A DNA stretch of 64,000 nucleotides, taken from the NCBI GenBank assembly GCA_026770705.1, contig JANJGN010000005.1:76012001-76076000 (forward strand), given 5' to 3'. A program made the position numbers and the translations under genes. This DNA is from Isurus oxyrinchus. Its lineage: Eukaryota. How positions within the stretch are numbered: the stretch's first letter is position 1; each line of letters opens with the position of its first letter. Below are positions 10,835 through 43,869 of the stretch, piece by piece. Below the pieces are notes generated by a model. The model did no database searches, was not told the DNA's origin, and saw nothing but the letters and a program-made list of their open reading frames with translations.

Positions 10835-13560
10835 GTGTGGAATCATCCCAGAGTTGCACTAAGTGCAGTAGTGGGAAGTTAAAATGATGTTTTACCCTCC
10901 GGCCGTAATGGTAGCTTTTCATGCCGTATCGTTCCGAACACGCCACATTAATTATGCATTTCCAGGAAACACGCCATTTCCATGGTGGGTGGGCTCTCAT
11001 TCACCCACCGGTCATCACCTCACCGATTCAGCACACCAAGTGTGAGCACACACATCTCAGTGCTTCCAGCCCATGACTGCAGCAAAGAAGACATGACCCT
11101 GAAAGGCAAAATGATTGGAACCCCCAGGTTCAATTATGTGTCCCTCGAGCACCTTTTGGACACAGTGGAGGCCTATGGTGATGTCCTCTACCCTCATTCT
11201 AGCCACAGGATGGGCAGCAACCTCAATAATTTGGCTTGGGAGGCGGTGGTAGTGGTGGTCCGAGCCAAGGCCCTGCAAAAGAGGACAGTCACCCAGTGCC
11301 GCAAGAGGATGAATGATCTCCTCCATTCTGCCAGGGTAAATCACTCTTTCATCACTTTCACCTCACACACTCATAAAACCATCACACATCCACAGGGCCC
11401 TCACTTACTGTTGGTTCAAGGGGCATCACCACATATTCATTTTCCTCATCCTGTCCATTGGACCACTCACCACCCACACATGCCAGGCATACTTATCATC
11501 TGGGCTAGTAGGTGTCCTTTTCACACCCTCCCTTTCTCTATTCATGCAGGACATGCTGGCACACAACAACAGGGAGAGATCACAGACCGGTGGAGAAATG
11601 CCTGAATTCAAGGTCCTCACGGACCTGGAAAACAGAGCCATCCAGCTGGCCAGCAAGGATCTGGACCATTCCTGTGCTAACGGTGAGGTTGACGGTGCTC
11701 TACCAAGTGAGGATCTAGCAGGGCAACATCCATTAGACAACCATGCTGTGAGTGATGTGCCCTCTTTTACAGGCCATTGCCATGCACTAATTATCTCCCC
11801 TTGCTTTTGCAGGCATGTCTGAGAAACAACTGATAGAGTCCCAGCACCTCCAATCAAATCTCAAAGAAAACTCTGAAGAGGAATCTGGAGAAACACTCCT
11901 TAAAGTCCCATTACAGCGCTCAGCCACACCCTCCACCAGCACAGAGACATACACCTCAGTGGGACCTAGCTTTAGAGTAGCCTCGGGATCACAATCTGGT
12001 GAGTACATCACACTGTCTGATCCACAGCAGATGGTGGCAGGGACTTCCCAGGTATCCGGCATTTGGAGGACTGCTGGAGACCAGAAATTTGCTGAGTCCG
12101 AGTTAGATGATGAGCTTCTGGATTCAGTCATGTCACAGTTGCTGGAGCTGCAAAGGCAAGCTAGGGAACATCAGGAAGGGATGTCCGCTGCACTCCTCAG
12201 ATTTCAAGGCACGATGGAGGAGTCCGTTCGCCTTCAGGCTGTAGTGATAGCGCCAGCATGCCAACACACCGAGGTCAACACTGATAGGATGGCAGCCGCC
12301 ATGGAGACCTTCGTCCAGGATGTCACTCCTGCACTGCTGTGCTGGCTCAATTCCATCGCTGGCCATTGTTTACCACCAACAGTGTGTACGTGAGAGAGGT
12401 GCGGGGCAGTTCAATCTCACTCCAGTTACCCATTCTCCTCAAGAAGTCAGCCAGGGACCCTTCAGCACCCATAATGAGGAGGATCAACAGGTGTACCACC
12501 TGGGGCTATCCACCCTGGTTACTCTGGGAGTGTTTGGCTCATCCGAATACCCTCTTCCTGTAATCCCAGCAGCTCCAGCTCCACAGGCCGAGAAGGGTGC
12601 CACTGCCACAAAGCAGGTCCCTGAAAGCAGGCTGGGGCCCTCTAGGCCTCAGCCCTCCAGAGGACTTCCACCAAGGTCATCACAGACAGGGCGTAGCAGT
12701 TAGCAGACTGCCCCACCTCCGCTGTGGATGGCTGGGGAATACCAAGATGTAGCAGCAGGGTTAGGAAAGTTAAGAAGATATATTTGTACAGCCTGGGCAT
12801 GTGTCTTAATCACTTGTACATATTGTTCACTATTGTCAATCAACTCCCAAGAATGTCTCCCTGCCTATGGCTCCTTGTTCTCAGAGCAGTGTTCATGTCA
12901 CTCAGATGTGAAACCTTTCTGCACAAGATAAAGGTAGGTGTCTCAGTCCAGGGCCTCTTCCTTGTGGTTTGTATAGCCTTCAGACTAAAGTGATGGTCTG
13001 GCCTCTCACTTTCTGGACACATTACTGATGCCTGCATCTGTGAAACCTGCCAGAATGGAGTGGTCAGGCGTCAAAAGGTGCCATCATTCTCTCTGTGTGC
13101 TCACAGCACATTTAAGCTGGGCTGGCCCCCATTTCTTCAGCATCTGTGACCAGTGACTCTGCTCCTAAGTGCGTCAGGTGCTGAAGGCGGACAAAGAATC
13201 ATATATTTTTAAAGTTTCATGATTTGACCCTGATCATAGAGCTCAAGTGAGCTGCCATGGTCAGACAGGAGTCTGACATCCTCAGAGGCTATGTGAAGAT
13301 CTGTGGAGTGTCCTCAGTGCATGTCGTCATCATCCTCCTGCAATTGAGCGACTTTTAGGGCCTTCACTGCGTCTCCATGACAGGTGCCTTATCACAAAGG
13401 GTAAGTGCGTTGCTATAAGCCAGACTAGAGTCATGCGTTCATCGATGCAATGTTAGGATCTATGGTGTCTCCCCACTGCATGTCATCCTCATCCTCCACA
13501 AAACTAGCAGCTATGAGGGCCTCCCGAGCACACCTGTCTCATCTGGCCAGTGTCACGGCC
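10835..13560 (+). mobile_element. PIF/Harbinger element, left part (Myb/SANT gene kept, transposase mostly lost)
   Basis: Left end 10835-11040 aligns by eye with 56273-56470, and 12735-13560 aligns with 56482-57330. Contains the Myb/SANT gene. Confidence 0.75.
11093..12703 (+). pseudogene. Harbinger Myb/SANT (MSANTD-like) DNA-binding gene, 3 exons, one frameshift
   Basis: Trihelix motifs PRF...LLDTVE...AWEAV...KRTVTQCRKRMNDL. In-phase GT-AG introns at 11336-11549 (phase 0) and 11707-11812 (phase 1). Frame shifts near 12360, and the alternate frame runs to 12703. Confidence 0.7.
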
Positions 13561-15157
13561 TCATCTCCACCATTGTCACCTCCTCACACTCATCCCTTCA
13601 TCTTTATCCCAGGCCGGGGAGGGGTGGGGCACATCAGTCCACTCTCAGTCGTGCCCAGTACATTGTGCGAAGAGCACGGTCAGTGCCTTACTCACGGCAG
13701 TCTGGGGGGTTTCTGGCATTGTACTCAGCCACAGATGGCACAGTCACTGTCAGGGGAGGCATCTGCAACCTATAGGTTGGGAACAGATAGTATAGGGTCG
13801 GGCACTCAATGGTCTCATGGTGGGGAGGTCCCGATAGATCCCAGTACGTTAAGTTTCAAGATGGGGAGGACCATCACGTCAAACAACATAGGGATAACAA
13901 AGGTATATCTGCCACAATAACAATGGGATCAAGGAGAGTAATCGGAGGGAGGGAAACCTGAACGTTTTGCTCCTTCAGGACGATGGGAGGGATTTCCATG
14001 GTCTGGTAATAAAACCTGAGGACCACCATCTTGGAACCTGAAGCAATGGAGCAGTGAAAAATGAAACTTCAATCAATGCTGCTGGGGAGGACGACTTCTG
14101 GAAGGAATGTTTCACAGCACAGGGCAGCCAATTAAACAGGCACCCATCTGAAATCTGTATTCCCAAATGAGGAGGAATGCACAGCTGAGGCATGTGAGGC
14201 GATAACGAGCCATCAATCTAAAAGTGCGTTCATACAAGATTAATTCCGATTAGTTCTAATTATCAATATCTGTGCAGTAACCCTTTACAACAATCTGGTT
14301 GGGGCTTGGCCTAAATAGCCAAGTGGTGATGGTACTGGGTTTGTAACCCCAAGATCGAGAGTTCAAATCTCACAGTGGCAAACAATGTAACTTCATCTGA
14401 AACAGATGGAAATGGGTTTGTACTCGAAAGAGTATCAAGAGTTCAAATCTCACAATGGCAAACTATGAAACAATGTAACTTCATCTGAATAAACAGATGG
14501 AAACGGGTTTGTACTCGAAAGAGTATGAAGAGTTCAAATCTCACAATGGCAAACTATGAAACAATGTAACTTCATCTGAAACAGATGGAAACGGGTTTGT
14601 GCTTGAAAGAGTATCAGGAGTTCAAATCTCACAATGGCCAACTATGAAACAATGTAACTTCATCTGAATAGGAACAGATGGAAATGTGTTTTGGCCTAAA
14701 TGGCCAAGTGGTTATGGTCCTGGGTTTGTAACCCCAAGATCAAGAGTTCAAATCTCACAATGGCAAACAATGTAAATTCATCTGAAACAGATGGAAACGG
14801 GTTTGTACTCGAAAGAAATCAAGAGTTCAAATCTCACAATGGCAAACTATGAAACAACATCTGAAACAGATGGAAATGGGTTTGTACTCGAAAGAGTTTC
14901 TGGGTTTGTAACCCCAAGATCAAGAGTTCAAATCTCACAATGGCAAACTATGAAACAATGTAACTTCATCTGAAACAGATGGAAACGTGTTTGTACTCGA
15001 AAGAGTCACAGGTGCAAAGCCACTTTGAGCTTGGCCTAAAATAGCCAAGTGGTTATGGTACTGGGTTTGTAACCCCAAGATCAAGAGTTCAAATCTCACA
15101 ATGGCAAACTATGAAACAATGTAACTTCATCTGAAAAACAGATTGAAGACTAATTTT

Positions 15158-15288
15158 GGCTTGGCCTAAATAGCCAAGTGGTTATGGTACTGGGTTTGTA
15201 ACCCCAAGATCAAGAGTTCAAATCTCACAATGGCAAACAATGTGGCTTCATCTGAAACAGATGGAAACGGGTTTGTGCTCAAAAGAGT
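15158..15288 (+). mobile_element. Representative tRNA-Thr(UGU)-derived SINE-like monomer
   Basis: Pol III A box TAGCCAAGTGG, anticodon arm CTGGG-TTTGTAA-CCCCA, B box GAGTTCAAATC. 3' hairpins TCATCTG-AAA-CAGATGG and, in most units, CTC-GAAA-GAG. The acceptor stem is poorly paired, so it is not a functional tRNA. Confidence 0.8.
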
Positions 15289-15816
15289 ATCAAGAGTTCA
15301 AATCTCACAATGGCAAACTATGAAACAATGTAACTTCATCTGAAAAACAGATGGAAATGTTTTGCTTGGCCTAAACAGCCAAGTGGTTATGGTACTGGGT
15401 TTGTAACCCCAAGATCAAGAGTTCAAATCTCACAATGGCAAACTATGAAACAATGTAACTTCATCTGAAACAGATGGAAATGGGTTTGTACTTGAAAGAG
15501 TTACAAGCTTTAGCTTGGCCTAAATAGCCAAGTGGTTATGGTACTGGGTTTGTAACCCCAAGATCAAGAGTTCAAATCTCACAATGGCAAAACTATGAAA
15601 CAATGTAACTTCATCTGAAACGGATTGTGCTCGAAAGAGTATCAAGAGTTCAAATCTCACAATGGCAAACTATGAAACAATGTAACTTCATCTGAACCAG
15701 ATGGAAACGGGTTTGTGCTTGAAAGAGTATCAAGAGTTCAAATCTCACAATGGCAAACTATGAAACAATGTAACTTCATCTGAAACAGATGGACACGGGT
15801 TTGTGCTCGAAAGAGT

Positions 15817-15937
15817 GCCTACGGCCATACTAGTCTGAAAACGCCCGATCTCGTCTGATCTCGGAAGCTAAGCAGACTTAGGCCTGGTTAGTACTTGGAT
15901 GGGAGACCGCCTGGGAATACCAGGTGCAGTAGGCTTT
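15817..15937 (+). rRNA. 5S rRNA, full mature length (probable retrocopy)
   Basis: GCCTACGGCCATAC...GCCCGATCTCGTCTGATCTCGGAAGCTAAGC...TTAGTACTTGGATGGGAGACCGCCTGGGAATACCAGGTGCAGTAGGCTTT. Starts at +1 and ends at UUU, with no 5S spacer DNA on either side. Confidence 0.97.
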
Positions 15938-16677
15938 AGCTTGGCCTAAATAGCCAAGTGGTTATGGTACTGGGTTTGTAACCCCAAGATCGAGAGTTCA
16001 AATCTCACAATGGCAAACTATGAAACAATGTAACTTCATCTGAAACAGATGGACACGGGTTTGTGCTCGAAAGAGTATCAAGAGTTCAAATCTCACAATG
16101 GCAAACTATGAAACAATGTAACTTCATCTGAAACAGATGGAAACGGGTTTGTACTCGAAAGAAATCAAGGGTTCAAATCTCACAATGGCAAACTATGAAA
16201 CAATGTAACTTCATCTGAATAGGAACAGATGGAAACATGTTTGTAGTCAAAAGAGTTACATAGCCTGGTATAATCTGTCTGGCTTTTGGGCTTGGCATAA
16301 ATAGCCAAGTGGTTATGGTACTGGGCTTGTAACCCCAAGATCAAGAGTTCAAATCTCACAATGGCAAACTATGAAACAATGTAACTTCATCTGAATAGGA
16401 ACAGATGGAAACGTGTTTGTACTCGAAAGAGTTACAAGCTACACTGGGAGAATTTATAAATAATCAAGAGTTCAAATCTCACAATGGCAAATTATGAAAC
16501 AATATAACTTCATCTGAAACAGATGGAAATGGGTTTGTACTCGAAAGAGTTACACCCAAGTCAACCTGATTCTTGGCTTGGCCTAAATAGCCAAGTGGTT
16601 ATGGCAATGGGTTTGTAACCCCAAGATCAAGAGTTCAAATCTCACAATAGGAAACAATGTAACTTCATCTGAAACAG

Positions 16678-17745
16678 ATGGAAACAGGTTTGTACTCAAA
16701 ACAGTTACTGTGGTTACCAAGGAAACATTTGTTACCCCTCCGTCCTTTTCAGTGGTTGGCGGAGAGGAGGGCTGTGGCCACAGGGGTGACCAGGATCGGG
16801 GACATGCTGGGTGGCGGAGGACTGGGCTGGATGCTCCCGCGGGAGTTGGCGCGATGCGCGTCTGTGAGTGTCCAGGTCGCAGCCAATGCCATCCAAGACC
16901 TGAGAACGGTTGTGCTCGGACCCGACGTTATTTTGGGTCTTGAGGTGGCCCAGGCGCGTGGTGGTCTTCCGTCTGAACGTTCCCCTGTTCGGACAGAATT
17001 CCACATTGGCCCCAAGCCCCGAACCCTCCCTCGGGTGCTGGTGCCCCGCAATATGAGCCGCCTCGGGGACATGCCCTCCCTGCCTTTTGGCACGGCAAAG
17101 AGGGGCTTTTTGTACAGACTGCTGCTGCACACCTTCCATTTTCTTGCCCTTGTCCGCCGCCCGGACATGCCCTGGCGTGCCTTGTTGCCGTCCGGTGGTG
17201 GAGGCCCCCGATGGGAGGCCCTCTATGGAGGTGTCCTCCCCCTTTCTATCGGGGACCTGGGTTGGAGGGTGTTGCATGCATCAGTCCCCTATAATAAGAG
17301 GATGCATAGGTTCACAGACTCTCAGGACACGTGCCCTTTTTGCGGTCTTATGGAGTCCGTGGACCATGTATACATAGGGTGTTGTAGGCTGCACTCCCTT
17401 TTTAGTTATTTGAAAAACCTTTTATTGATGTTTTGTTTGCACTTCAGCCCCACACTCCTGATCTATGGGCACCCGGTGCGGAAGGGGGTCGGGAAGGAGG
17501 AGGACCTCCTCGTGAACCTGCTCCTGGGCCTGGCCAAGTTGGCCATTAACAGGTCCAGGCAGCAGGCGATCGACGGGGGAGTCCCGCCCGATTGTTTGTC
17601 CCTCTTCCGCGGCTACGTTCGCTGCCGGATGTCCCTGGAGAGGGAGCACGCGGTGTCTGCTGGCACTCTCGAGGCCTTCCATGCTCGGTTGGCACCGCGG
17701 GGACTGGGGTGTTTTGTTGACCCCTTTAATCACATTTTGATTTAA
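16678..17745 (+). CDS. Open frame covering Tx1 ORF2 C-terminal (zf-RVT-like CCHC) domain; first ~20 codons come from the SINE unit and junction filler
   Basis: 355-aa ORF with no stops and a C-X2-C-X7-H-X4-C motif. It lacks APE and RT domains, so it is not autonomous. Confidence 0.55.
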   Translation: METGLYSKQLLWLPRKHLLPLRPFQWLAERRAVATGVTRIGDMLGGGGLGWMLPRELARCASVSVQVAANAIQDLRTVVLGPDVILGLEVAQARGGLPSERSPVRTEFHIGPKPRTLPRVLVPRNMSRLGDMPSLPFGTAKRGFLYRLLLHTFHFLALVRRPDMPWRALLPSGGGGPRWEALYGGVLPLSIGDLGWRVLHASVPYNKRMHRFTDSQDTCPFCGLMESVDHVYIGCCRLHSLFSYLKNLLLMFCLHFSPTLLIYGHPVRKGVGKEEDLLVNLLLGLAKLAINRSRQQAIDGGVPPDCLSLFRGYVRCRMSLEREHAVSAGTLEAFHARLAPRGLGCFVDPFNHILI

Positions 17746-17854
17746 AGTTTGTAAGTTTCCTTTAAACTTTGTTCTTGGTTTTACAGCTGACCTGAATTAG
17801 GGGCTGTGCCTGATTTATCCCAATTTTGTTGATTTGGTTTTCATATAAAAGATC
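16737..17854 (+). mobile_element. 5'-truncated Tx1-clade (L1 group) non-LTR retrotransposon
   Basis: GC/CpG-rich. Uninterrupted ORF2 C-terminus with DLGWRVLH, zinc knuckle CPFCGLMESVDHVYIGC and LLLGLAKLAI. Short T-rich 3' UTR ending TATAAAAGA. Confidence 0.88.
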
Positions 17855-19439
17855 ATCAAGAGTTCAAATCTCACAATGGCAAACTATGAAACAATGTAAC
17901 TTCATCTGAAACAGATGGAAACGGGTTTGTACTCGAAAGAAATCAAGAGTACAAATCTCACAATGGCAAACTATGTAACAATGTAACTTCATCTGAATAG
18001 GAACAGATGGAAATGGGTTTGTACTCAAAAGAGTTACAAGCTACACTGGGAGAATTTATAAATCAAGAGTTCAAATCTCACAATGGCAAACTATGAAACA
18101 ATGTAACTTCATCTGAAACAGATGGAAATGGGTTTGTACTCAAAAGATTTAAAAGATTATCAAGAGTTCAAATCTCACAAAGGCAAACTATGAAACAATG
18201 TAACTTCATCTGAATAGGAACAGATGGAAACAGGTTTGTACTTGAAAGAGTTACAAAACAAATCAAGAGTTCAAATCTCACAATGGCAAACTATGATGCT
18301 TGTCCTGGTGAAGTCTTTAATAGACAAAAATTTTTAAATAGCCAAGTGGTTATGGTACTGGCCTTGTAACCCCAAGATCAAGAGTTCAAATCTCACAATG
18401 GCAAACTATGAAACAATGTAACTTCATCTGAATAGGAACAGATGGAAACATGTTTGTACTTGAAAGAGTTACAACAATCTGGTTATTCCCCTCTGTGATA
18501 GCAACTCCAAAAACAAGTGGGTACCTGATAAGCAGGAGAAGCCTTTTGGGAACACTCCCTCAGAATCTCATCGCTGCCACATTCAGGGATGAGAATCCTA
18601 GGCCCCCAAAAAGAATCTAATGGCCTCACAGAATATCTACCCTCATGTGTTTTGCAAAGGATGTAGTCATTCAATCCACTGAATGAGTAATGTGTAAACT
18701 GGAATAAATGCAGGCCAGCCATGTGCCTGGCCAAGTCCATCTCTTAGCAATAGGTTTACTGAGATGGGGGAAAGGCAGGGGTGGGGTTTGTGGGGTGGAG
18801 GAGAAGGATACTGTGACACAGAGTGTTCATAGCCATGGCCACGATTGCATTGGCTAACAGGTGTCTGTACTGTAAGCAAGCCCCTAAAGCCACAGTCACT
18901 CACTAGTCAGTGACAGAAAAAGAACCTTCAGAGGCTGCTAACTGATATTTTTATTTCAGCGATCCAATAGGCAGGAGAACATGAAGAAAATGGAGGCTGC
19001 ATTTAACGCTGTCTGCATCATCACAAGGCAGGCAGGAGTGTGCACGATTTCTGAGTATGACCTTTTAGATTGCAGGCCCTAAGGGATGACAGAGAGTACA
19101 TGGAGATGCGCATCTATATCTCTCCTAGTGCATCGTATCTTCACTTTTCCACAATGCAGATTAGCCGAGGGACTACATGAGCCTCCATCTTACACAGCCG
19201 AGAATGAACATCATTTATAATTGCAATGCTTGTCAACAAGATGTCTCGCACAAGTACGTTTTAAGGGTGACTCATGACTGATGTTGGAGAACTGAGAAGG
19301 AACACACTCTGTGATGAGATGGCTTCACACAACGTGGACAAGAGTCACGTGATGTGAGATCAGCAATAAGTGGGAGGAGGCAACATAGTGTGACCTCTAA
19401 TAGATCACAACACAACTCAGCATTCAGAGGAGGAGTGCA

Positions 19440-30117: not shown

Positions 30118-31299
30118 TCACACAAAGATGACTGGCCTGTCCCCCCACCAACCACCTCACCATCCCTTGGCCAAATGCTGCCTACATCATATTAGGCACC
30201 AGATGGTCTAACCTTCCATAACAAGGAGGCACATGCACGTGGAGTGCAGAGGACAGCAGATTGCCACCTTGAATCTCCCCTCCCAGCATGTCATCACCCT
30301 GACTTTGACATGTACTGGAGTTCCAGCACTGCGCCTGGTCCAGCTCCTCCAGGTTGCCACCAAAACAGTAATGTGGGTCTCAGCGTACCACATGCTAGGG
30401 TGGCAGAACCCATCTCTTCACCACCCTCTCAGGGTGACCTTGGCATGGGCAATATCTGCTGGCCCACCCAGTGAAGGACACATGCTGTCAATGATTCAAT
30501 GCAGTTACTACGCTCAGACTTGGGGGTGGGGGGTGGGGTGGTGGGGGGGGGGGGGGGCACCAGGAGTGAAAGCTGGGTTAAGTGACCAGTGCCAACGTGG
30601 TACTCAGTCTTCCTGAGCACAATAGGTCATTAAAGCGCTTGCGACACTGGATCCAGGTGTGCCGCACCACGTTGTGGGAACTCACCACCTCCACCACCTC
30701 TTCCCAGGTATGTTTGGTCATGTGGAGGGGCCTCCTCCTCCTGTCCTGGGGTACGAGGACCTCCTGCCATGTTGCCACCTGTTCGAGGAGGGCACCAAGG
30801 CAATCGTCTGAAAAACGAGGGGCTCAGTGCACCCCTGCCCTACCCTCTTGCCTGTCCTGCTCACCAGCAGCTCTCTAGGAAGCTCTTCCACTGGCCATGA
30901 TTCACAGCCTTTGAAAGGCTGAAGCAACTTTTTTAAAACAGGCAGCTGGGTCGCCATTGGGCTTGGAGGTCATTGCAGTCCCACCACCGCCCGCCCACTC
31001 CCGCTGTCCTTGGGAGCTGTGATTCACGCTGGATGGGCTTTAGTTGGCTCGCCCGTGTAAAATGGCAGCACAGACCCGATCACTGGCAGCAACCGGGTCC
31101 ATGCCCACCCGCACCCTCTCCCATTCTGCCTGCCCGATAGGCAGAAAATTCTGCCCTTTGTATATAATCCCCAGCAGTGCTATTTAAAGGCCTATCTTGC
31201 AAATAAAGTGTTTATGAATTACCTTTGCTTTTGTAAAGTTTGTGGAAGTACTGTGGTGTGTCCTTAGAGGAGTTTGGGTGGTTTGTGGGATTTTGAAAG

Positions 31300-33900
31300 G
31301 AGTGTTACTGATTCTGACAGGGAGGACAGAGAGGTTTTTTTTGCCTTATGTATAAAGCCTCCTTTTGGGTTGAAAACTGACAGGGACATGGAGCTGAAGT
31401 TGCAGAGAAGGGAAGCTGTGCACAGAGGATTTTCCACAGAAGGCCTTACACAGCTAAGTTTTTCAGGGAGCACACCTCACTTGCACCCCAGCCAGGAACA
31501 GTGCCATTCCCCAGGGAGGTGATCACAAAACTGTGTCAACAGACCTAGCCTCATAGCAAGGACGAGGACGAGGACGAGGTTTCCAGTCTACTAAAGTGCA
31601 GTTAGTGAGCCGGCCAGGCAGGAGGGTAGGGCAGGGTACACTGTGCCCCTCGTTTTTCAGGTGATTGCTTTGCTGCCCTCCTGAGGAGGTCGCAGCACGG
31701 CGGGAGGTCCTCGTACCTCAGGACGGGAGGAGGAGGTCTGCTCACATGACCAAACGTGGCTGGGAGGAGGTGGCGGAGGTGGTGAGCTCCCACGATGTGT
31801 TGCGGTGCACATGGATCTAGTGCTGCAAGTGCTTTAATGACCTGTTACGCTCAGGAAGGGCGAGTACCATGTTGGCAAGGACTGCCTGTAGTCATAAAGT
31901 TCACTTTCTCTCTCAACTTCTTTGCAGCCAGGTCCTTATAGGTGAGAGCAAGTTACATTGCCAACATTTCCCAGTTTGCCATCCATCTTTGTACCTGAGA
32001 GGTGCCATAGGTCCTATATGAACAGAGAGGAGTCCGCATTATCTCTCGAAGCAGAAAGAGCATAGGATCATAAGAAATAGGAGCAGGAGTAGACTACACA
32101 GCTCATTAAGCCTGCTCCACCATTCAATACTCTCATGGCTGTTCTTGGGCATCAACTCCAAAGAAACAGAAGGATGGGCATGTGGCGGAGGGATTCCAAT
32201 GGTGTAGGGAGCCATTGACTGTATGCATGTGGCTCTGCCGGTTCTTACCTCAAAGGTTTCTGATCTATTAAAGTGCAGTTGGTGAATAATCATATACAGA
32301 CCATCATGTGAATGAAAGCTTACTATCCTGACAGCCATGACACCTTCATCCTGAGGCAGTCTGCTGTGATCTCTGTGCCACCATGAAGAACCAGAACCTG
32401 ATTGTTTGGAGAGAAAGGCAGACGATCCCTCAACCATCTGACGATGACGTGATCCATCCTGCCGGCTATAATGGAGAAGACCATCAGCATTCTCAAACAA
32501 CAGTTCTGCTGCCTGGACCCCTCCAACATTTGATGAAGTGTGTCCAAATTTCCTTCATAACCTTGCGATTATGAGGGCACAGATTTTGCCACCATGGTGG
32601 TCAGTCACTTCAGCAGGCAGAGGAGGCCCCTTTTTTCTGGGCAGATTGTCTGTGAGTGCATACTGAGTATTCGGTTTCCTTAAGACATCGCCATCTTTCA
32701 ATCCTTTCTTTTATTTATTGGATGTGGGCATCACTGGCTAGGCCAGCATTTATTGCCCATCCTAATTGTTCTTGTTTAGAGGGCATTTAAGAGTAAACCA
32801 CATTGCTGTGGGTCTGGATTCACATGTAGCCAGACCAGGTAAGGATGATTGAAGCAGATAGGTTTTTAAGGCAATCAGCAATGGTTTCATTCGATTTTTA
32901 ATTCCAGATTTTTATTGAGTTCAAGTTCCACCAATTGCCATGGCAGGATTTGAACCCAGATTCCTCAGATCATTATGCTGGGTTCTGGATTACTAGTCCA
33001 GTGACAATACCACTACACCATCGCCTCCCTATTTGCTGTGAATCATCACAGAGTCCTCTAGGACAAAATCTTGAACTAAAAGGAATCAACAAAAAATATT
33101 TCCAGAACAACTTTATATAGTACATTAATACATACAAACCTGAATTATTCATTTGATAGTAGGTTAGTGCTCCACTGAAACCCTCTGGTGTGGTGCGTCA
33201 GTAATCCTAGAAGACAGATTACTGGACTGCCTCGAGTGCCTGCAAGCTTCCGTGAGCATTGAGATCTACAGCCATGATAATAGCAGTCTGAGCCTGTATA
33301 TGGCAGCAAACATGAATCTCATGAACTCAGTCTAAGCTTCCATTGCAGCACTGAGACATAGTGTGGGTTCCCCCAATTCTGCAGTGGAAAGCGAGATATC
33401 AGCCATCAGAAGGTGTATCATGTGTGAGTCCACAGTGTTGCCATGAAGTTGGCCCACCACTCCTACGCTGGAAAGCATGGGCTCCAAGCTTTGCATGATG
33501 CTGTGTACCACTTTAGAGCTAGGGTCCTCCATGCTCCTTGACAGTGGCAACAAGTGATCTGACAGGCCAGCCAATGCACCAATCATCTCTGTGTGCATTC
33601 TTATCAGCATTCTCCTGTAAACTACTCGATCAAAGTCCTCAACTTAGCACCCTATAACAGAACCCATATCCAACCTGGTACTCCAGTAAGATGGCACATG
33701 AACAATCTTTTCCGCCTGGCTTAGCTGCAGCCTATTCGTGCTAGGTGACTCACCACGTGCAGATCCCAACTCTATACTGTTCTCTGAGATATGTGCAGTA
33801 GTAGTATCTGAAATGATGGTTCTATTTGTCAGATCAAGTGAGGGTGCTTCCTTATCAGAGGTCTCTAGCAGCTCTTGTCCTTCCTCAAGAGGCCACAGGG
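31300..33900. mobile_element. Old, heavily decayed Harbinger (transposase + strand ~31350-32650, Myb remnant - strand ~33160-33900) with nested inserts
   Basis: GAIDCMHVAL at ~32207 and SHDTFILRQS at ~32332. Nested inserts are an inverted Myb exon copy, a CR1 tail and a SINE. Confidence 0.6.
32710..33029 (-). mobile_element. tRNA-derived SINE
   Basis: Reverse complement starts GGGAGGCGATGGTGTAGTGG (A box) and has GGGTTCAAATCC (B box). The 3' tail is shared with LINE ends at ~22405-22450. Confidence 0.7.
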
Positions 33901-34769
33901 CTGGTGAAGGGGGTATATGAAAGTGTAATTGCAGAGGGGAGGTTGGGGTGAGGGAAATGAAGTGGGGTGGGAAGCAAAAGGTCCATAGTCACATCAGCCA
34001 TAGCTTTTACTTCATGCCACAGAGCAAGATGAGAATTGAGATGGGTTTTGAGAAGGGTCCTAAGGCAGGAAAATACCATCATTTTGTTTTTATTCATTCT
34101 TAGGATATGAGCATAACTTGGAGGTGAACTTTCATGTTGCAATATACCTTTGCATCTGCTGCCCTTTTTCTTCTAGGTAGTCAAGGTCATGGGTTTGTTG
34201 TGAGTGTTGGCGCATTACTGCAGTGCCTCTTGTAGATAGTATACATTCAAGCCTCTGTGCATCAGTGTTGGGGATGGGTGGTCGGTGCAGCTGGGGGAAG
34301 GTGCAGAGAGGATTTACAAGGACGTTACCAGAAATTCATGGGTATATATATCAGGAATGGATCCACACAGCTGCCTTAGGACAGCCATTGCCACTGGGAG
34401 CCCTCCATGAGCCACAGAGTGCACAAATAAGGGCCTCCCACCAAGACTATGGGGATGCTACCAGGCTCACCTGGCAGTCTCTCCACTTGGCTGAGGGCCC
34501 ATCCACTGCTGGTAAAACGGCAACAGCAGTGGGAAGAGGCCATTAATTGGCCTTTAATGGCTCCATTGGCCTTTGGGTGGGAGGGCTGTTCTCCACCTTC
34601 CCTGCCACTGTTAAAATGTCTTGCCGATAGGAAAACAGTGGGCATCCACCCCTGCCTTCCCTCGCCCTTTTATGCACCCCACCATCCACAGTCTTGCCCT
34701 ACACCACCCTCCACCTGTCTCCCAGCCCCTCCCTAGCGTGCTAGTGGTAAAATCTAGTCCCTTGAATCA

Positions 34770-35140
34770 TACGGTTGTGGATTCAAGCTCCTTTACAGAA
34801 CTGAACAGATAATTTAAGGTGACACCTTGGTGCAGCACTGAAGGAGTATTTGCAGATGTTGTCTTTCAGATGAGATATTAAATTGAGATCTTGTCTGCCG
34901 ACTTAGGTGAGCATAAAAAATCCAATAAAACTATTTAAAGAAGGGCAGGGATTTCTCATGATGGCCTGGTCAATATTCCTTCCACAGGCAATATTGGGCC
35001 ATTCATTTATTTGCTGTGTGCAAAATTGGCTGCCTCTTTTGCCAAAATAACAGTAGTGATCAGACTTCACAAGCAATCCACTCTTTCAATTGTACTTTGG
35101 GATGTCCGGATGTGCTATATAAGTGCATCTTCTTTCTTGC
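34770..35140 (+). mobile_element. Deu-domain SINE remnant (AmnSINE/SacSINE-like)
   Basis: GTCTTTCAGATGAGATATTAAA...AAATCC..ACTATTTAAAGAAGGGCAGGGATTTCTC resembles the Deu core as I recall it. L2-like tail GTGCTATATAAGTGCA. Confidence 0.55.
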
Positions 35141-35149
35141 TTTCATTCA

Positions 35150-35970
35150 CAGGAGACTGAAACAAGACAATCTATGAACCATCCTTTGAATTATGGTATT
35201 TCATATGACTTTCCACTTTTGACAAGTGAATGCCTTTGTCACCTCCCGACTCAAATATTTCACAGCTGAACTAGTTACGCTCCAACCTTAGCTAAAATTC
35301 TGCTGGCCATTATCTGTGATGAAGTTACCTGTGTTCTCTTGTGCTCTTGCATGCATGGTTTCAAACCTCATCATTATCACTAGTTTGCCAATGTGGACTT
35401 AATGAGCTAAATGTCTTCCTTCTATGCCATAATAACTCTGACCAAGACTTGTTTAATCATCATAGCTGTCCTTCATTGGATCCTGCTCCTCCAACGTCTC
35501 AAATTTAAAATGATCATCCTTTTGTTTAAATCCCTCTATGGCTTCACTCACCATATATCCATAACCTATTCTGGGCCACAACACTCCCCTCATTGCTCTC
35601 TGTTCCTCTGACTCAAGTCTCTTGTACATGCTATATTTTTGCCATACCATTGTCTGGTGTGCATTCAGCCACCTCGGCTACATTCTCTGAAACTTCATCT
35701 TTAAACCCACTGCTTCTCCACCTCCCTTTCTGAGCTCTCTTTTTCACCAACTCCCATCTTTGCATTTTATTGCTCTCTTCACCCCAACATTGGTAGCTTT
35801 GTCATTACCCACACTCTTATAATCTCTCCCTAAACCTCTCTGCCTCACCACTTATCTCTCCTATTCTCCATCAAACCTACCTTTTTGAAGAAAAATTTTG
35901 GTCATCCTCCTAATCTCCTCTCCATCTGTCATCGCAGTGTTCATTTTCTTCTGTGAAAAATCTTGAGATT
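35150..35970 (+). mobile_element. L2 LINE 3' remnants
   Basis: LHW...RLKFKMIILLFKSLYG is typical of the L2 ORF2 C-terminus. Confidence 0.6.
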
Positions 35971-36079
35971 TTTTTTTGTGTTAAATGCATACTCTTGTTG
36001 TATGTTGTTGTATAAGTGTATTTCTGTAGAAGTTGTACACCTTAGAGATTCGATAAACAGGTGGCATTAGGTATATGGC

Positions 36080-36830
36080 AGCTGGGTTGTGAGTAATTTC
36101 AGTTTCCTGCAGGGGTGTGCCTATAATAGCCTCTGCTGTAATGAATGCTGTCATCTTCTCCTCAAAGGGTGTCACTGCCTTCTGGGTATCAGTACCACCA
36201 TCTGTGCCAGTGCACACAAGGTGATTATAGATCATGTTTTCCAGTAATAGAAACAGGCTAACTTAAGCCAAGATAATGCCATCTTCCACTGGCTACTGTG
36301 ATCTCTCACCCTTCATTGAACACAGCGCGAGTGCAATATTTCTTTCTGATGTAGCTTCCTAGTTACATACAATACCACTTAGATTTATTTAAGTAACTCA
36401 CTGTAACATGCCATATGTAGTGAATACTTTCCTTTACAATTCAGCTGGTCTTACTGTATAAACGAAGGTTGCCAGTCTTTCATCCTGATAGTTTCATTGA
36501 CCTTTTTGAAGTCATGGAACTTTCTGTTTATAGCATTTCAAGTTTTGTTTGGTGGATTGTTCCTAGATATTTTCATGATTTCTTTCCATAACTTTTCTTG
36601 CTTTGCACAGTCTCTTTCCCTAGCCCCTAAATTGCTGCTCTTATTTTGAACGCAGTAACATTTCAAGATATCTGTTAAATAAGCGAGTCTTCTGTTAGTA
36701 AAATCAACCATTGTTCTAAATGTTTATTGTTCCTCAGGCTACAGCTACGTAAAAAAAATATGATAATGTAACTTGGTAAGCAATGTGTTAACTGCTTCAG
36801 GTCTGTGAAACGTTTTTTTTTATGATACCT
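36080..36830 (-). pseudogene. Divergent AT-rich Myb/SANT (trihelix) gene remnant
   Basis: Manual translation gives KQEKLWKEIMK...T*NAINRKFHDFKK (~36495-36610) and a second-exon-like TDGGT...TPFEEK (~36150-36210). Confidence 0.45.
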
Positions 36831-38999
36831 GTATCTAAATTGGAAACTCACTGCTGGATGCATTGTATGGATTCACTATGTTTGTAACCACCATCAGAAA
36901 ACCCTTGCTCGCACCTGTACCTTCACAAATCCATATAAACCTACATGTTACTTTTTTCAAGAAGGCAAATGTCTGAGGAAATTACAACCTTATCACTATG
37001 CAAAGTCTGAAACATTGAACAGGTTGATTGCCCAATATTGAGCCTTAATCATTCTTACAATTAATTCACTTCGAATTATGTTAAGACATATGTGTATGTG
37101 CACCATGTCTGGCTGTTGGGGTTGGAAAGTGTATTATTTTGAATAACATCATATCAGTTCCTTTAACTGCCATTTCTAGAGGAAAAAAACATGAGATCAC
37201 TATATGCTTGTGTTATTGACATTATCTTGTGCATGCTGTTGCTATGGAGAAAGCACAGTTAAATGAGTGTGATGCACTGCACTGTAGAAAGTGGGCAATG
37301 TTCCACAATGATCTCTGTGACCTGGTTTATTGTAAAGTTGAGGTTGTCCTCTCTAGAGAAATTTAAATCTGTTAATTTGCATGATGATCCACATTTTCTA
37401 CCTGTTCAAGAAATATTCAAAATCTTTTCTGTACATTTAAAACACAGTGCAACCTAAGACATTGGTTCACTGAGCACATCAACACAGTAGAAAGATGTGA
37501 AATATATATTGCAATCTTATTTCCTTAGGCTAATAGTAAAAGCAGACCTAAATTAGACCCGAGGGAGTCTAGAACAGAGACAAGAATCAAAAATTGTGAT
37601 GCAAAGTCTGTTATCTGAGATGATCTGAAGAAAAGATTGTGAATACCAATTCCCCCTGTTCTGAATGAAGGTAGCATCAATGAGGTCATCTAGCTACAGT
37701 GCTTGTGATTGTTTTGTTTCTTGGAATGGAGGCTGAATTGCAAAACTTAGCCAGTCCATGTATTTATTTTTGCATAATAAGAATATAAGACAATAAGTAA
37801 AAATTGCACAAATTAGATGCCTTTTTGATTGCTAGCAGCATAAAAAGATTAAGATAATTTGCACCAATTCACAAGTCACATGCTCTTAATAGTACAGACG
37901 ATTCCAGCAATTTTTATTTAGTAAATGATTGTAGCCTACCAACTAAGGATACAGTATTCCATTGCTGCCTAATGACATATATTACAGAGATCCCTTTAGG
38001 ATTCCTGTACGCTTTTATCTAACAACTTATTTCTGTTCTCATAGATTGGATGATGCAAAATTGGGCTTGGTAGTAAATGATTTGGCATTATGGGTGCAAC
38101 TTTGGGGACATGTGCGTGCGCATTTCTGCCATGAATCACACCTGACATCATATTGGTGAAGATGTTAACATGTGTACCTAATGTCTGCTGGATGTATGCA
38201 AAGCAGGAGGATCATGATGCGAATCAGCATGCAATGTTGGACTGGCGCCAGCACTGCCACTTTGGAGCTTCACAATCCATGGACAACCTCTGTTAATCTC
38301 ACAAAGCTGAACATGCATTGAACAGCATGTAAAGCACCCCCATAAGCTCATTAAAAGTAATCATCCACTACTTACAGGTAAATTGCTGATTGAATTCTTC
38401 TTGACTGTTGCTACAATTCCTCAAGTTTAATGCTTTCTAAAGTTGTTTCAAGTTGTAAATGTCTACAAGGAGTTGTGTGTCAGGTACAGAAGGAATTTTC
38501 ACTGACGTCAAGACTTTTGCATAAACCAGTTGCTTCTACACATGGTGGCATTATAGGGCTTCCTCTAAGAATTGAACATGGCTGGAAGATTGACAAGAGG
38601 CCACACACTGTCATGTTATTATAACAATATAATACCTTGGGCTTATTTACTGTACAAGACACAGTGGATAAATACATTGTGGGTTCATTTATTTAGACCA
38701 GGCACATGAGAACAGCTATACATAGGTATAGAGCTTGAAGGCATCAGAATTGTGTGAGTGTTCTGCTCAAAGCAAGAGTGAAACTAAGACTGGATCACAT
38801 GCCATATTACCCTTTTAGAGAACTCATGCTGATATCCCTTAAAGGTATATTACAACACATATTCTTTTTGAATATACTTCCCCCTCCTTGCAAAAAGGTA
38901 GGTTCATATTTAATTACCACTAGATAAGTGCATAGAACTGATTAACCTATGAGTGTCTAAAGTGTAAAGGTAATCTGCTAGTATGCTTAAGTTTAATGT

Positions 39000-41893
39000 T
39001 GGTAACCTTGTCTGGAGGTTCTTTAATTACTTAGAGTAATCTGTGGGATTGTCATTCTTGGATATTATTCCTGGTTGCACTTGGGATCTTGTCCTAAATA
39101 AAATAGGACTGCTGGGGAGCTGGATTGGATCTGATTTGTCCTCGGTTACTTTCACTGTTGTGCCTTTGTGTGTAGTGACTTCATAGGACCTTGGTTCTGA
39201 ACAAATCATTGCACCTCGCCTGATTGCCATGTATCTTCTGTTGGATCCTGGATACAAACTAATTGTCCTGCCTGTAAACTTGGCAATGCTATACCTGTAT
39301 TTTTATTGTGTGCATTGGTCATTTTCTTTTCTAGTTTTAAAAGCTGCTCCCTTGTATCAGAGAGAATAGAATGGGAAAGAATAGGTAAATTGTTATGTGC
39401 TGGTCTGCCAAACATGTGTTCTAACAGTAATGGAATATTTGCACTTAAGATGTGTCACTCTCAGATATAACATTGCAATGTGTAGATCTTGCTTGATCTG
39501 TCTACGCTTGAGAATTAGGGATTTCACCCTGAGAATCATTTCGTTCAGCTAGGTCATTACACCTAGGGTAATGAGGAGAAGAGGTAGTATGATCGATATT
39601 CCACATCACACACATGACCTGAAATGACTTATCAATAAATCTGTAATGATCTATCTAGGCACACTAAATAAACTGAAAATAGCACTTAGAGTGTGCACGC
39701 CAGCTGTGCTTGACAATTATGCAATTATCGAATAATTGGGTATTTGGTAAAGTAGCCAACAATGACAATGAAGTCAGTGCCATGGACATGGAAGAGGTTG
39801 GATGTGATTTTGGACTAAGGATGGTAGGAACTTCATATGGAATCAATGGTGCTTTGTGCATTGGCATGCACTTCATGAAAAGTCTTCAATTTCATTGTTC
39901 ATACCCAGCAATAGACTGTCCCTCTTGTGAGTCTTCTCATTTGATCTATGCCCATGGCTGAGTGAAGAAGTGGTTGAAGAATATCAGATTGCAAAGATAC
40001 CAGTATGATGATCTGCCTGCCTTTAAAAATGACACCCTGGGAGATAGCTAGATCGTCGCGATAAGGCCAAAAATGGCCTCACGTGTTTGTAGACATGCTG
40101 AATTGAATCTGGTCATCCTTCAATTATGGTTTTCCATGGTTTCTGTGGTGTAGAATCTTTTGCCATTTCTTCTTGCAGCTCCTGGCATTCATGTTGTACA
40201 AAATGTACCAGATCAATTTGGAGAACACCTTCAAGTTCAATGTCAATTAAGTCAACTTCTAGATCTAAGGATACATCTTCTGTTTTTGCTGGGTTAGGCA
40301 ATCTGCTAAGTGTACCCAATGTGATCATCAAGTTACCTGGCTTGTACATGTTCTCACAGTCGTAACCTTGAATCTTTATCAAAAAATATTTCAATTTTGG
40401 TCATGCACTGGTCAATGTTTTTTGACAAATCATTGAAGGATGGCCTGATTCAATTCAGCATATCCACAAACGTGTGAGGCCATTTTGGTCTTATTGGGAT
40501 GATCTAGGCATCGCCTGGGGAGTCATTTTTAATAGCAGGCAGGTCATCATAATCTTTGGGACCTGATATTCTTGTGGTTGGCCTCTAACAAAAACCTTTT
40601 GCCAAATAGATAGGTATGAAAATATATGATTCCAAACATGAAAGCTAATGTTTCCTGCTCAATGTTGGAGCAGTTGGAATTGCATTATAGGTTGCATTAT
40701 GGATAGAGATTTTGAAGCAAATGCAATAATTTTGCCATTTTTAGTATAGACACCCTCAGACCTTTCTGTGAGGCATCTATCTCCAGGGTAATTGGCTGTC
40801 TAGGATCTTTAAATTGCAATGTCGATGTTTCTGTTAATGACTATTTCACTGTTTCAAAGAGGTGTCGGTGGTATTCATGCCACAGGAAAGACTTGCTTGC
40901 ATCCTTGCTCAATAATTCCCTTAGTGAGGATGATTTTTCAGTGAAATTGGTGATGTATGGAGACAAGAAATTAAAGAGACCTAGAGATCTTCAAAGATCG
41001 TCTTTATCTTGAGGAGCTGGCATGGCCTTAATATCTCCTATTTTATTAGGAGTTAGACATATACCAGCACTGGAATAAATAGAGCTGAAGAAATAAATCT
41101 GCTGCACATTGATGTCAGATTTCAGACCGTTGAACGCCAATCCTTCATTATATGCTGACTGTATCAATAAGTGCACATTATGGTCATGTTCTTGCTTTGT
41201 TCTTCCTAAAATAGCTATATTATCTGCAATACAGATGCATTCTGGTGCAGTGTATGTAATGCAGTCCATGTGAGCTTGAAATATATCCTGGATAACAGAT
41301 AGCTCAAAAAGAAATTGTTGAAAAAAGTGCTGAAGTTGCATTTAAACGTTATGGATTGAGGCATACTTTTAGTCATCTCTTTCTTTATGACACATGTGAT
41401 TGAGATACACCAGTCTGTGTGCTCTTGTACTCTTCTAATGATTCTGAATTTCTCCATTTTGTCTAGTTCGACCTTCAGTTCGTCTTGTATATGGATGCTG
41501 CATTTACATAGTGGATTGGTTGACGGACATGCATCCTCCTGCAAATGTAATGTTGCAGCTCCCTTGAAATTGCCAATTAAATTATGAACTGAGGTGATAG
41601 GAGTAGTTTCAGGGGTTGATCTACATTGTAATGTCTGACTGATTCAATGGATTGTTACCAGCGTAAGATTCCGTCAGGATGCAGGTCCGTCAACTGATCC
41701 ACCACACAAATGTAGCATCCACGTACAAGATGAATTGAAAGTTGAACTAGACAAAATGGAGAAATATTGGTAGTTTTCTGTTTTGATGCCTTTTTTTCAG
41801 GTCAGACCTGCAAACTTTTTTGAAGTTGATTTTCGGAGAATTTGGAGTCCTTCACAGCTGCCACCATGTTGTAAAATTCCACCTCTGATACCA
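39000..41893 (-). mobile_element. Decayed Gypsy LTR retrotransposon pol (RT, RNase H, integrase)
   Basis: LDKMEKFRIIRRVQEHTDWC, IADNIAILG, YKPG...LSRLP and MFGRP motifs. PBS-like TGGTATCAGAGG at 41893-41882 next to a putative LTR, and a polypurine tract at ~38878-38889. Confidence 0.85.
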
Positions 41894-43869
41894 TGTTTTA
41901 TGTTGGTTGTGATTGGCTAAAGGACAATTGCAGAGACATAGATATGTCTGAATAATAACTGGCTTATTGGATGAACATAACTATATGCAGATATACAAGT
42001 ATTACTCAGCCTAAGCCATGAACTTTTTCCTTCTTGACTCTTAGTCTCGTGTCTCTTACATTATCCTGTAAACGGTACTGTTTCTCCAGTCCCACACATT
42101 AACCCTTTCAACCTTGAACACAAGTCTGTCAAGTGACCACCACATAAATGCAGCATCCACATTCAAGACAAACTGAAGTTTGAAATAGACAAAATGGAGA
42201 AATACTGAATCATTAGAAAAGTACAAGAGCACACAGACTGGTGCAGCTTAATCACATGTGTCATAAAGAAAGACATCATTAAGAGTTCCATAAGTTTGCT
42301 TTCCAGAAGCAACGTTGCGGAGAAGTTGTGAGAAAAACAATGAACATTAACATCATGACCTTACCTTTAAGTTCTCTTAGGGAATTGTCATCAAAATTCA
42401 CCAGATATGTCACAAAAGACCAAGTTTTCAATGGGGACAAAATCGAATATTGTATACTCACCACAGAACCCCCAGCCTCTGATCTGACCTTGTAGCAACA
42501 GTATTTATATGGCTGGTCCTGTTAAATTTCTGGAGAAGTTTCTCAGGATGTTGATGGTGGGAGATTCAGTGATGTTAAGCCATTGAACATTAAGTGGAGG
42601 TGCTTAGATTCTCTTTAGTTGGAGATGGTCATAGTCTGGTACATATGTATCATGAATGTTACTTTCCATCTATCAGTGCAAGCCTAAATGTTATCAATTA
42701 CTTATAAGGATTTAAGGACATAAATCAGCAACAGGAATCAAAGTGGGCAAAGTGTAGGGGTGGGGGAACGGGTGAACGTGGTAATTTTAATGTAACAGTG
42801 GAAAAATGATAGAATCGAATCTGTGATTCTGTCCAAGTTACTTTCTATTGAACTTTCATATTCTGTAATGAAAGACTGCAAGCTGTATTAAAAATGAATT
42901 GATTTTATTCAGTTACACATTCAGTGTACATGTTTAGCGTGTTCAGCTGTCACATTTGCACATTGAGTCCCATAAATTTCTCTGTTTATTATAAATATGA
43001 CCAGTCCCTAAGTGCTGTTTTATTTGAGGTTATAGTACTTGCGATCCCCTGCATAGCCAAGTGACAGCTTATTAGGAATGTGGGAACCTTTCCAGCTGTA
43101 GATTTGATGATCTTTCCAGCTGTAGATCTGCATAAATTTCAGTGATCACATTTGCTGTGATTAGTGGAGAGTCATTGCTTTTAGAGATGGTGTTAGCTGT
43201 TGAGCTTGCATGGTTATATGATGGCATTGAAGTATGGTAATGTGAATGCTGCTGCTGTGGTGCTACATCATACTATTGCTGGTGAGCATCTCTTCATGAC
43301 CTGTGTGACTTTTGAGAATCTCTTTGTTTACAGGTAGCCCATAAACATACTCTAAGCAAGTTAAAGCCATCCACGATTATCACTTGGAGATTGAACCCCA
43401 AAATTTCCATGGCATAATGAATGGATATCTTGAGCCTTTACTTCTATTATCACTCACTTAATGGCAGAACACAGTGTTTACAATTAGTGCACTATTACAT
43501 TACTCATAAGAAAATTCACGGTGTTAGAATTCTTCACACAATCCAATCCACATTCTAAGGTTGAATCAATGACTGGTCATTCCTGCTGCTCACAGGTATT
43601 GAATGCTGGGAAATTACAAGCTTCTATAGGGTTGGGGATATTCTTGAAGCAAAGAACAATGATATCAAAATTGATATGGAATGAAACCTGGAAGAACAAA
43701 GAGGATGGAAATTCAAACTTTGAGAGCATTAGCTTGTGTGCATAAGCATTCTGAATAAGTTGTAGTTTATGAAGGGCGATGGGTTAGGACTGCATTCAAA
43801 TCTCAGCAATGGTAGAGTAGAAGGAGACAATGCTTTGAAATTGAAAAATATTAGGATCGGCATTGTGAG

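Follow-up and report, generated by a model that had tools for sequence, protein, structure and literature searches.

The window analysed here, a 64-kb stretch of the Isurus oxyrinchus genome (contig JANJGN010000005.1, positions 76,012,001 to 76,076,000), carries a mixed head-to-tail array in which units of a transfer RNA (tRNA)-derived short interspersed nuclear element (SINE) are joined to a 5S ribosomal RNA (rRNA) copy and to pieces of Tx1-A, a long interspersed nuclear element (LINE) that inserts into this SINE. Genome-wide counts given below refer to this 4.98-Gb genome. An anchor search allowing up to two substitutions recovers the SINE 26 times in the window, always on the plus strand and inside 14354-18377, and finds it neither elsewhere in the window nor on the minus strand. 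Fifteen of these units are headless and 11 follow a tRNA-like head, while a head without a body does not occur in the array. The same 15-bp duplication stands on both sides of the array, a feature absent from the preliminary description of this DNA, and we therefore conclude that the array grew inside one founder insertion. Its components are, from left to right:

14286-14300, plus strand: left-hand copy of the 15-bp target-site duplication that flanks the founder SINE insertion, TAC class (duplication analysis)
14301-18469, plus strand: the array, all in the same orientation, with 26 SINE units (11 headed, 15 headless) plus a single 5S rRNA copy, a single 5'-truncated Tx1-A and a single Tx1 stub (anchor search, Rfam, duplication analysis)
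14301-14433, plus strand: first full-length SINE unit, with tRNA-like head (anticodon TGT by inspection), body and a tail ending GAAAGAGT (anchor search, Rfam)
14434-14449, plus strand: first headless start, target ATCAAGAGTTCAAATC (anchor search)
14525, 14613, 14818, 15289, 15641, 15729, 16077, 16164, 16463, 17855, 17942, 18062, 18159 and 18262, plus strand: the other headless starts (anchor search)
15817-15937, plus strand: complete 5S rRNA copy whose ends directly adjoin a SINE tail on one side and a SINE 5' end on the other (Rfam); two more loci show the same arrangement
15938-16076, plus strand: full-length G-allele SINE unit with the end GAGT/ATC, the slash marking the junction; identical copies lie on many contigs (tail-allele survey)
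16433-16462, plus strand: 30-nt 3' trailer that was transduced with a SINE (genome search, five contigs)
16706-16731, plus strand: trailer without a duplication partner nearby, which links the truncated Tx1 to a SINE tail, probably by a template switch or RNA ligation (junction analysis)
16732-17854, plus strand: 5'-truncated Tx1-A LINE with the C-terminus of open reading frame 2 (ORF2) including zf-RVT, stop codon at 17743-17745 and 3' untranslated region (UTR) (domain search, protein comparison)
17855-17866, plus strand: target directly after the Tx1 3' end, of which 11-12 bp are duplicated at full-length copies (flank analysis)
18035-18061, plus strand: second copy of the transduced trailer, joined to ATC 3 nt earlier (trailer search)
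18148-18158, plus strand: 11-nt Tx1-A 3' stub ahead of the target (anchor search)
18470-18484, plus strand: right copy of the founder duplication (duplication analysis)

The 15 headless starts named in the preliminary description were each found by the anchor search at exactly the coordinate given there. Their boundary had been placed near tRNA position 46, and the Rfam tRNA alignment at 15944-16015 (30 bits, gathering threshold 29) indeed puts the junction at 15989 on base 46; ARAGORN calls no tRNA inside the array. The upstream side, described as variable, is of several kinds yet not free: it consists of a SINE tail (GAAAGAGT or GAAAGAA), a Tx1 end or the 11-nt Tx1 stub, or a tail plus a trailer from another locus. 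The Tx1 tail quoted there, ATAAAAGATC, is the end of the window copy, but the family 3' end reads ...TTTAAAAGATT, from which the window copy differs by two substitutions.

The ORF2 of the LINE contains the Pfam domains Exo_endo_phos, an apurinic/apyrimidinic endonuclease (APE), RVT_1 and, below its cut-off, zf-RVT, and a frame of 1,303 codons is open in two genomic copies (L035 and L039). When 8,000 candidates were scored with one open-frame copy, the closest family-named protein was the Xenopus Tx1 149 kDa ORF2, with 50% identity at 100% coverage. ORF1 gives a zf-CCHC match below cut-off (E=0.005). Of 100 flanks, 92 share one target and duplications accompany the copies, against a criterion for target preference of more than 20% of flanks (PMC4494074). 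By the features tested, the LINE is assigned to the Tx1 group of retrotransposons without long terminal repeats (non-LTR).

The 3' end of Tx1-A has 2,544 exact matches in the genome, compared with none for the reversed-pattern control. Among the first 100 listed, all on one contig (C1) and counted by hand, 92 continue with ATCAAGAGTTC inside the SINE: about 81 run into a SINE body, about nine into the 5' end of another Tx1, and two are unclear. Seven of the eight remaining ends start with ATCA. The preliminary description had predicted such an enrichment genome-wide, and had named random Tx1 3' flanks as the outcome that would speak against it; the prediction holds. At the other end of the element, one 11-12 bp duplication stands in front of every one of the 30 best-scoring 5' ends. 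It recurs before 92 of the first 100 among 490 5' ends found by pattern, and in five of the 30 the SINE head with ATCAAGAGTTC stands directly before the Tx1 5' end. Off-target copies end at AAAAGATT and have duplications of their own, mostly 13-16 bp, which could be recovered at 38 of 74 junctions. Because these copies stop there, the SINE body is not part of the LINE. Chance is excluded by the 2,544 Tx1-A ends and 30,941 SINE anchors against zero in the reversed-pattern controls. [quoted passage not shown]

The SINE itself shows the features of a SINE2 element: a tRNA-related head, interspersed copies with target duplications and a 3' end shared with a LINE. Among the first 100 of its 30,941 exact anchors, again classified by hand, 59 are headed, 36 follow a SINE tail, three a Tx1-type end and two something else, so that about 41 of 100 sampled bodies are headless. 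The idea that the SINE carries the target of its own mobilising LINE holds with an amendment. The target is there, but the tail matches an older sister subfamily, Tx1-B, rather than the Tx1-A of the window (17 of the last 20 nt agree with the Tx1-B end by eye), and a second class of sites, /TACA, is used at the tail end. In a survey of 452 tails, a G at the diagnostic tail base goes with GAGT/ATC in 114 of 129 cases, and an A with GAGT/TAC in 247 of 320 or with GAA/ATC in 30. With query-biased loci removed this association has a Fisher p of 5.5e-24, to be read with the copies not being independent. TAC-class SINEs with verified duplications are of the same age as ATC-class ones (0.023 and 0.020 versus 0.021, p=0.90).

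Tx1-B has 286 exact matches and is about 94% identical to one Tx1-A copy over the last 1.5 kb. Its copies, like the A-allele SINEs, insert at /TAC(A). For 44 founder TAC sites the duplication could be recovered; 17 of them lie at one position of a Harbinger-like repeat and 27 are dispersed. The window holds two such repeats, both with domain hits and both with the Tx1-B target empty:

10952-13597: decayed Harbinger-like element with a Myb/SANT reading frame at 10952-11605; empty Tx1-B target near 12784, minus strand
56481-61216, minus strand: second Harbinger-like copy, its Tx1-B target empty at about 56531 on the minus strand, with a DDE_Tnp_4 fragment at 57376-57693 (24.2 bits, cut-off 24.8)

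On our reading, the Tx1-B nick in Harbinger-like elements falls at the stop codon that closes a basic C-terminal frame read from the opposite strand.

In a midpoint-rooted tree of the last 1.3 kb, 46 of 48 Tx1-A copies form one clade (100/99) with shorter branches. Tx1-B is older (0.040 versus 0.022 for Tx1-A), and the 5' leader of Tx1-A equals part of the Tx1-B target; from these two findings we place Tx1-B first and Tx1-A second. Just one of 59 Tx1-B copies falls within 1%. Only nine B-type 5' ends were found by pattern, and a further 40 B 3' and 5' ends added one B-ended endonuclease, that of L181. This full-length copy, with its 3' end at 7237, has an A-like end followed by a B-like end, and may be an intermediate from which internal priming produced the Tx1-A end. 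Most likely, then, the SINE arose as a passenger of Tx1-B and later became the target of Tx1-A, and Tx1-A, a young clade, has probably changed its target only recently.

Empty-site logos inform on how the site is chosen. Here 306 terminal junctions were examined and 85 entered three logos. Off-target ATCA sites (n=41) read T-N-C-A-M-Y/ATCA, with C at -4 in 31 of 41 and T at -6 in 21 of 41 (p=8e-4, short of the corrected threshold), and the dispersed TAC sites have C at -4 in 18 of 27 and T at -6 in 20 of 27. The two classes thus have C-4, more weakly T-6, and overlapping duplication lengths of 13-16 bp in common. What differs is the first four target bases, which track the end of the RNA: ATCA goes with Tx1-A ends, G-allele SINEs and the trailer, and TACA with Tx1-B ends and A-allele SINEs. 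In a third junction class, three tailless, head-only SINEs (L309, L317 and L324) ending AAGAG/TTCA have duplications of 14-16 bp that start with TTCA. As SINEs encode no protein and the TAC class is as young as the ATC class, these patterns point to one tolerant nuclease combined with pairing of the RNA at the primer. Perfect motif sites number about 0.9 million (extrapolated from 11 in 60 kb) and SINE sites 31,000-45,000, which amounts, as a rough estimate, to a 200-fold preference per site for the SINE over bare motif sites; moreover, the SINE site misfits the motif at -1. For these two reasons the endonuclease motif by itself, as read from these sites, cannot give the specificity.

We consider it probable, though well short of certain, that Tx1-A inserts itself, and very likely SINE RNA too, at base 46 of the SINE head, with the site likely selected jointly by an endonuclease of loose specificity and by the RNA 3' end pairing with the nicked DNA. 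In such a scheme the endonuclease would nick sites of the form T-N-C-N-N-N/W-W-C-A, and transcripts that run on into the flanking target would offer long homology between RNA and complementary DNA (cDNA), favouring SINE copies the approximately 200-fold per site. A nick before ATC would be followed by reverse transcription of Tx1 or SINE RNA and a second nick about 14 nt on. A tail-altered, B-like copy landing in a SINE would have founded the new target. That RNA-assisted choice was the main cause of the target switch is hardly less probable in our view. The further proposition that the target was inherited through the RNA rather than the endonuclease, with read-through target sequence as the guide at every insertion, so that one copy in its own passenger SINE re-targeted the lineage from Harbinger to the SINE, we hold more tentatively, at somewhat below an even chance.

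Several points weigh against RNA-assisted choice. The counts of Tx1 and SINE junctions include local duplicates and are not independent events, and the pattern used for the search itself fixed the ATCA core of the off-target set. A few active Tx1-B copies could have mobilised the TAC-class SINEs. Beyond +4, off-target sites show no gradual resemblance to the SINE target. Long homology or tethering would account for this, short extended pairing would not; the additional preference is thus all-or-none. The sequencing runs consist of assembled contigs, mostly guessed to be RNA, and could not show expression, strand or read-through. Finally, the proteins differ. G156E is present in both Tx1-B copies and in none of 12 Tx1-A copies, L42F and several C-terminal changes add to it, and the hairpin change S200L occurs in two intermediate copies, L181 and L165. 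Only two B-ended copies cover the endonuclease, one of them (L181) with the intermediate tail. We had at one stage held that the endonucleases of Tx1-A and Tx1-B do not differ, a view dropped when the second B-ended copy revealed G156E.

These differences are the basis for a protein-determined switch, in which changes in the endonuclease (the G156/V157 loop) or elsewhere in the ORF1 and ORF2 proteins moved the site from Harbinger to the SINE by TPRT as before, the 3' tail changing alongside. Position 156 is in the loop that contains the counterpart of L1 R155 and precedes it by four residues. According to passages of PMC1950540, nicking by the Xenopus Tx1L endonuclease is almost wholly confined to its target, and R155 is a likely DNA contact; the C-terminal differences, too, would be expected on this account. 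It does not explain why non-coding SINE subfamilies hold distinct junctions at equal age. The beta-hairpin loop, identical in Tx1-A and in the one clean Tx1-B copy, is unchanged in L147, and L149 combines a Tx1-B endonuclease signature with a Tx1-A tail and is located in the SINE target, that is, at the Tx1-A site. The off-target motif is also just 8 nt long, and the SINE departs from it at -1. Taken together, we regard a switch determined by the protein as unlikely.

A doubtful alternative, to which we give less credence still, is that the particle is drawn, by tethering or accessibility, to SINEs transcribed by RNA polymerase III (Pol III), with the site enclosed by the A and B boxes, and cuts at whichever tolerated motif is closest, only the first four bases being set by the RNA. 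Pol III tethering is known from Ty3 and TRE5. The roughly estimated per-site preference beyond the motif, the bimodal choice of sites and the wealth of captured Pol III RNAs in the arrays all suit this mechanism. It leaves the preference of Tx1-B for the coding end of Harbinger-like elements (17 of 44 TAC-class founder sites) unexplained, and by inspection no true tRNA genes are found among 100 listed off-target ends. Long read-through homology would serve both Tx1-A and Tx1-B, tethering to Pol III only Tx1-A.

With RNA-assisted insertion as the preferred reading, the headless units can be understood as products of repeated events at one site. A SINE cDNA reaching the head would pair with the head of the host copy, giving head-body-body without an orphan head, and growth of the array would proceed by re-cutting the junction, head/ATC or tail/ATC. 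A search for orphan heads at 30 loci returned 23 point variants of the B box, two heads followed by another head and five followed by other sequence. One locus (L322) has a head, 12 bp and a full SINE, an alternative array product. The origin of the units can be read from adjacent bodies that end an ATC run: the internal and the terminal tail carry different alleles in 25 of 36 pairs, which argues against local duplication, as this would have copied that base. Neighbours are therefore not more alike than distant units, as they would be in a satellite. Likewise, the 30-nt trailer at 16433 recurs on five contigs, each time following a SINE tail; on four of them it breaks off at /ATCA, and these include unique sites outside SINEs. 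The SINEs that bear it are of the A allele. The trailer is a 3' transduction from one source gene, and the headless units derive from other loci, with local duplication secondary.

Head and tail carry similar GGGTTTGTA motifs, and slippage, which the preliminary description had named as a possible sole source of headless units, or unequal exchange between them is for these reasons highly improbable except as a secondary amplifier. Local duplication does exist. Tandem Tx1 fragments share one truncation point in L024, L049 and L175, there is an 18-match array on C1, where satellite-like Tx1-B fragments of about 430 bp are arrayed at C1:28192271-28212979, and nine Tx1 5' ends spaced about 7.4 kb apart at G000 C2:61831262-61890207 indicate a satellite-like local amplification. 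Slippage accounts neither for the differing terminal alleles and the recurrence of the window trailers on other contigs nor for the target duplications at Tx1 and off-target copies.

The 81 5'-truncated Tx1-A copies provide a further view of the junctions. A plain ATC duplication at an on-target copy was found in just one (about 30 nt, L045); nine are ATC-type cases off target, 58 have no duplication partner, and in 13 a TAC-type duplication could bracket Tx1 plus body. Many come after a SINE body, or after a tail with a trailer, and a SINE tail lies upstream of 37. The notion that nothing is targeted and that a headless unit just forms the closing stretch of the Tx1 3' UTR can draw on the 13 TAC-type cases and on the SINE body behind about 81 of 100 Tx1-A ends. 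It is barely credible beyond an occasional co-transduction of the body: off-target copies stop at AAAAGATT and are flanked by duplications of their own, in about nine of 100 cases the end passes across the 11-mer directly into another Tx1, and 5' ends adjoin head and ATCAAGAGTTC (5 of 30).

In the arrays, 5S rRNA, U6, precursor tRNAs and SINE units whose trailers end in T are joined end to end. A 5S rRNA of one type is present in three independent arrays (window 15817-15937, L157 1175-1286 and L196 3586-3702), each time with its 3' end at a SINE 5' end. A full-length U6 small nuclear RNA copy (L303 1608-1714) follows right behind two tailless SINE heads, and tRNA copies with a short leader and trailer, precursor-like, lie in SINE arrays (L082 1251-1322 and L039 593-665). 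Long trailers end in at least three T more often than spacers of duplication length (13 of 28 versus 7 of 48, p=0.003, in a length-class test chosen post hoc); against the control of spacers that recur in the locus, which contained duplicated whole units, the difference is not significant (p=0.44). The joins would fit template jumping onto Pol III RNAs or ligation of them, and the DNA is compatible with either.

The passages cited here of Kojima 2015 (PMC4494074) describe Tx1 families with targets in other repeats as well as a SINE that uses such a target too: Tx1L, Tx1-Mar with SINEU, and Tx1-9_AMi in Harbinger. In Tx1-Mar and SINEU, as in the present system, a Tx1-clade LINE targets an interspersed repeat, and its target is also that of the passenger SINE, which builds tandems around a duplication; a preference for Harbinger elements is common to Tx1-9_AMi and Tx1-B. 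The target of Tx1-Mar and Tx1-9_AMi, according to the same passages, is a DNA transposon, whereas here the passenger SINE is the target and each new SINE a landing site; in further contrast, this one genome holds two subfamilies of about 94-96% identity with a different target each. Xenopus Tx1L in Tx1D is the closest named protein to Tx1-A and resembles it in its APE endonuclease and in its fixed site in a repeat, but its specificity is attributed to the endonuclease (passages of PMC1950540 and PMC4494074), whereas Tx1-A has an apparently short motif, some 8% of its copies land off target and the first target bases track the end of the RNA. For R1Bm and SART1Bm, downstream target sequence on the RNA is reported, in part of PMC7265360, to anneal at the nick and give accurate priming. 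In those elements the endonuclease sets the site and annealing refines it; in the present case annealing would contribute to the selection among sites and be inherited by subfamilies. U6/LINE-1 chimeras likewise have U-rich-ended Pol III RNAs ahead of truncated LINEs (PMC6789731), and tailless retropseudogenes are internally primed, 3'-truncated copies at sites complementary to the RNA end (passages of PMC5322556); unlike in both, the events described here pile up at one self-renewing site and are made by Tx1, not L1. Described fish and shark SINE families (HE1, DeuSINE) have CR1/L2-type partners listed, not Tx1, in the passages cited of PMC3747384, and those of PMC3747384 and PMC8869645 name no case of the present kind. 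In the open literature, without Repbase, subscription journals or supplements, we came across no description of a Tx1 element whose target is its own passenger SINE, nor of near-identical subfamilies between which the target has switched, and the family may already be catalogued. Target-specific Tx1 elements are thus known; new here is the passenger SINE as target, with feedback.

How target-specific LINEs change targets is an open question, because the known families with different targets are deeply diverged. Here one genome holds the states both before (Tx1-B) and after (Tx1-A) the change. They are about 94-96% identical, ORF2 is open in two copies, candidate residues are few and the last 20 nt differ, so that simple swaps can separate control by protein from control by RNA. 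If the RNA steers the site, this would bear on programmable retrotransposon insertion, and a target inherited through RNA would make Tx1-A a natural, reprogrammable, RNA-steered APE-type retrotransposon caught just after its switch. Every new SINE copy would then be a new landing site in a feedback loop. The system shows a SINE becoming the safe harbour of its partner LINE and growing into satellite-like arrays.

In a sequencing run with another organism code (X16), one contig over window 17807-17925 bridges the Tx1 end and the SINE target, and the targeting may be shared by a related species. Outside the array, ARAGORN calls an 89-nt tRNA-Thr(AGT)-like gene at window 32936-33024 on the minus strand, and a reverse transcriptase/RNase H fragment of an LTR-type element lies at window 52545-53174.

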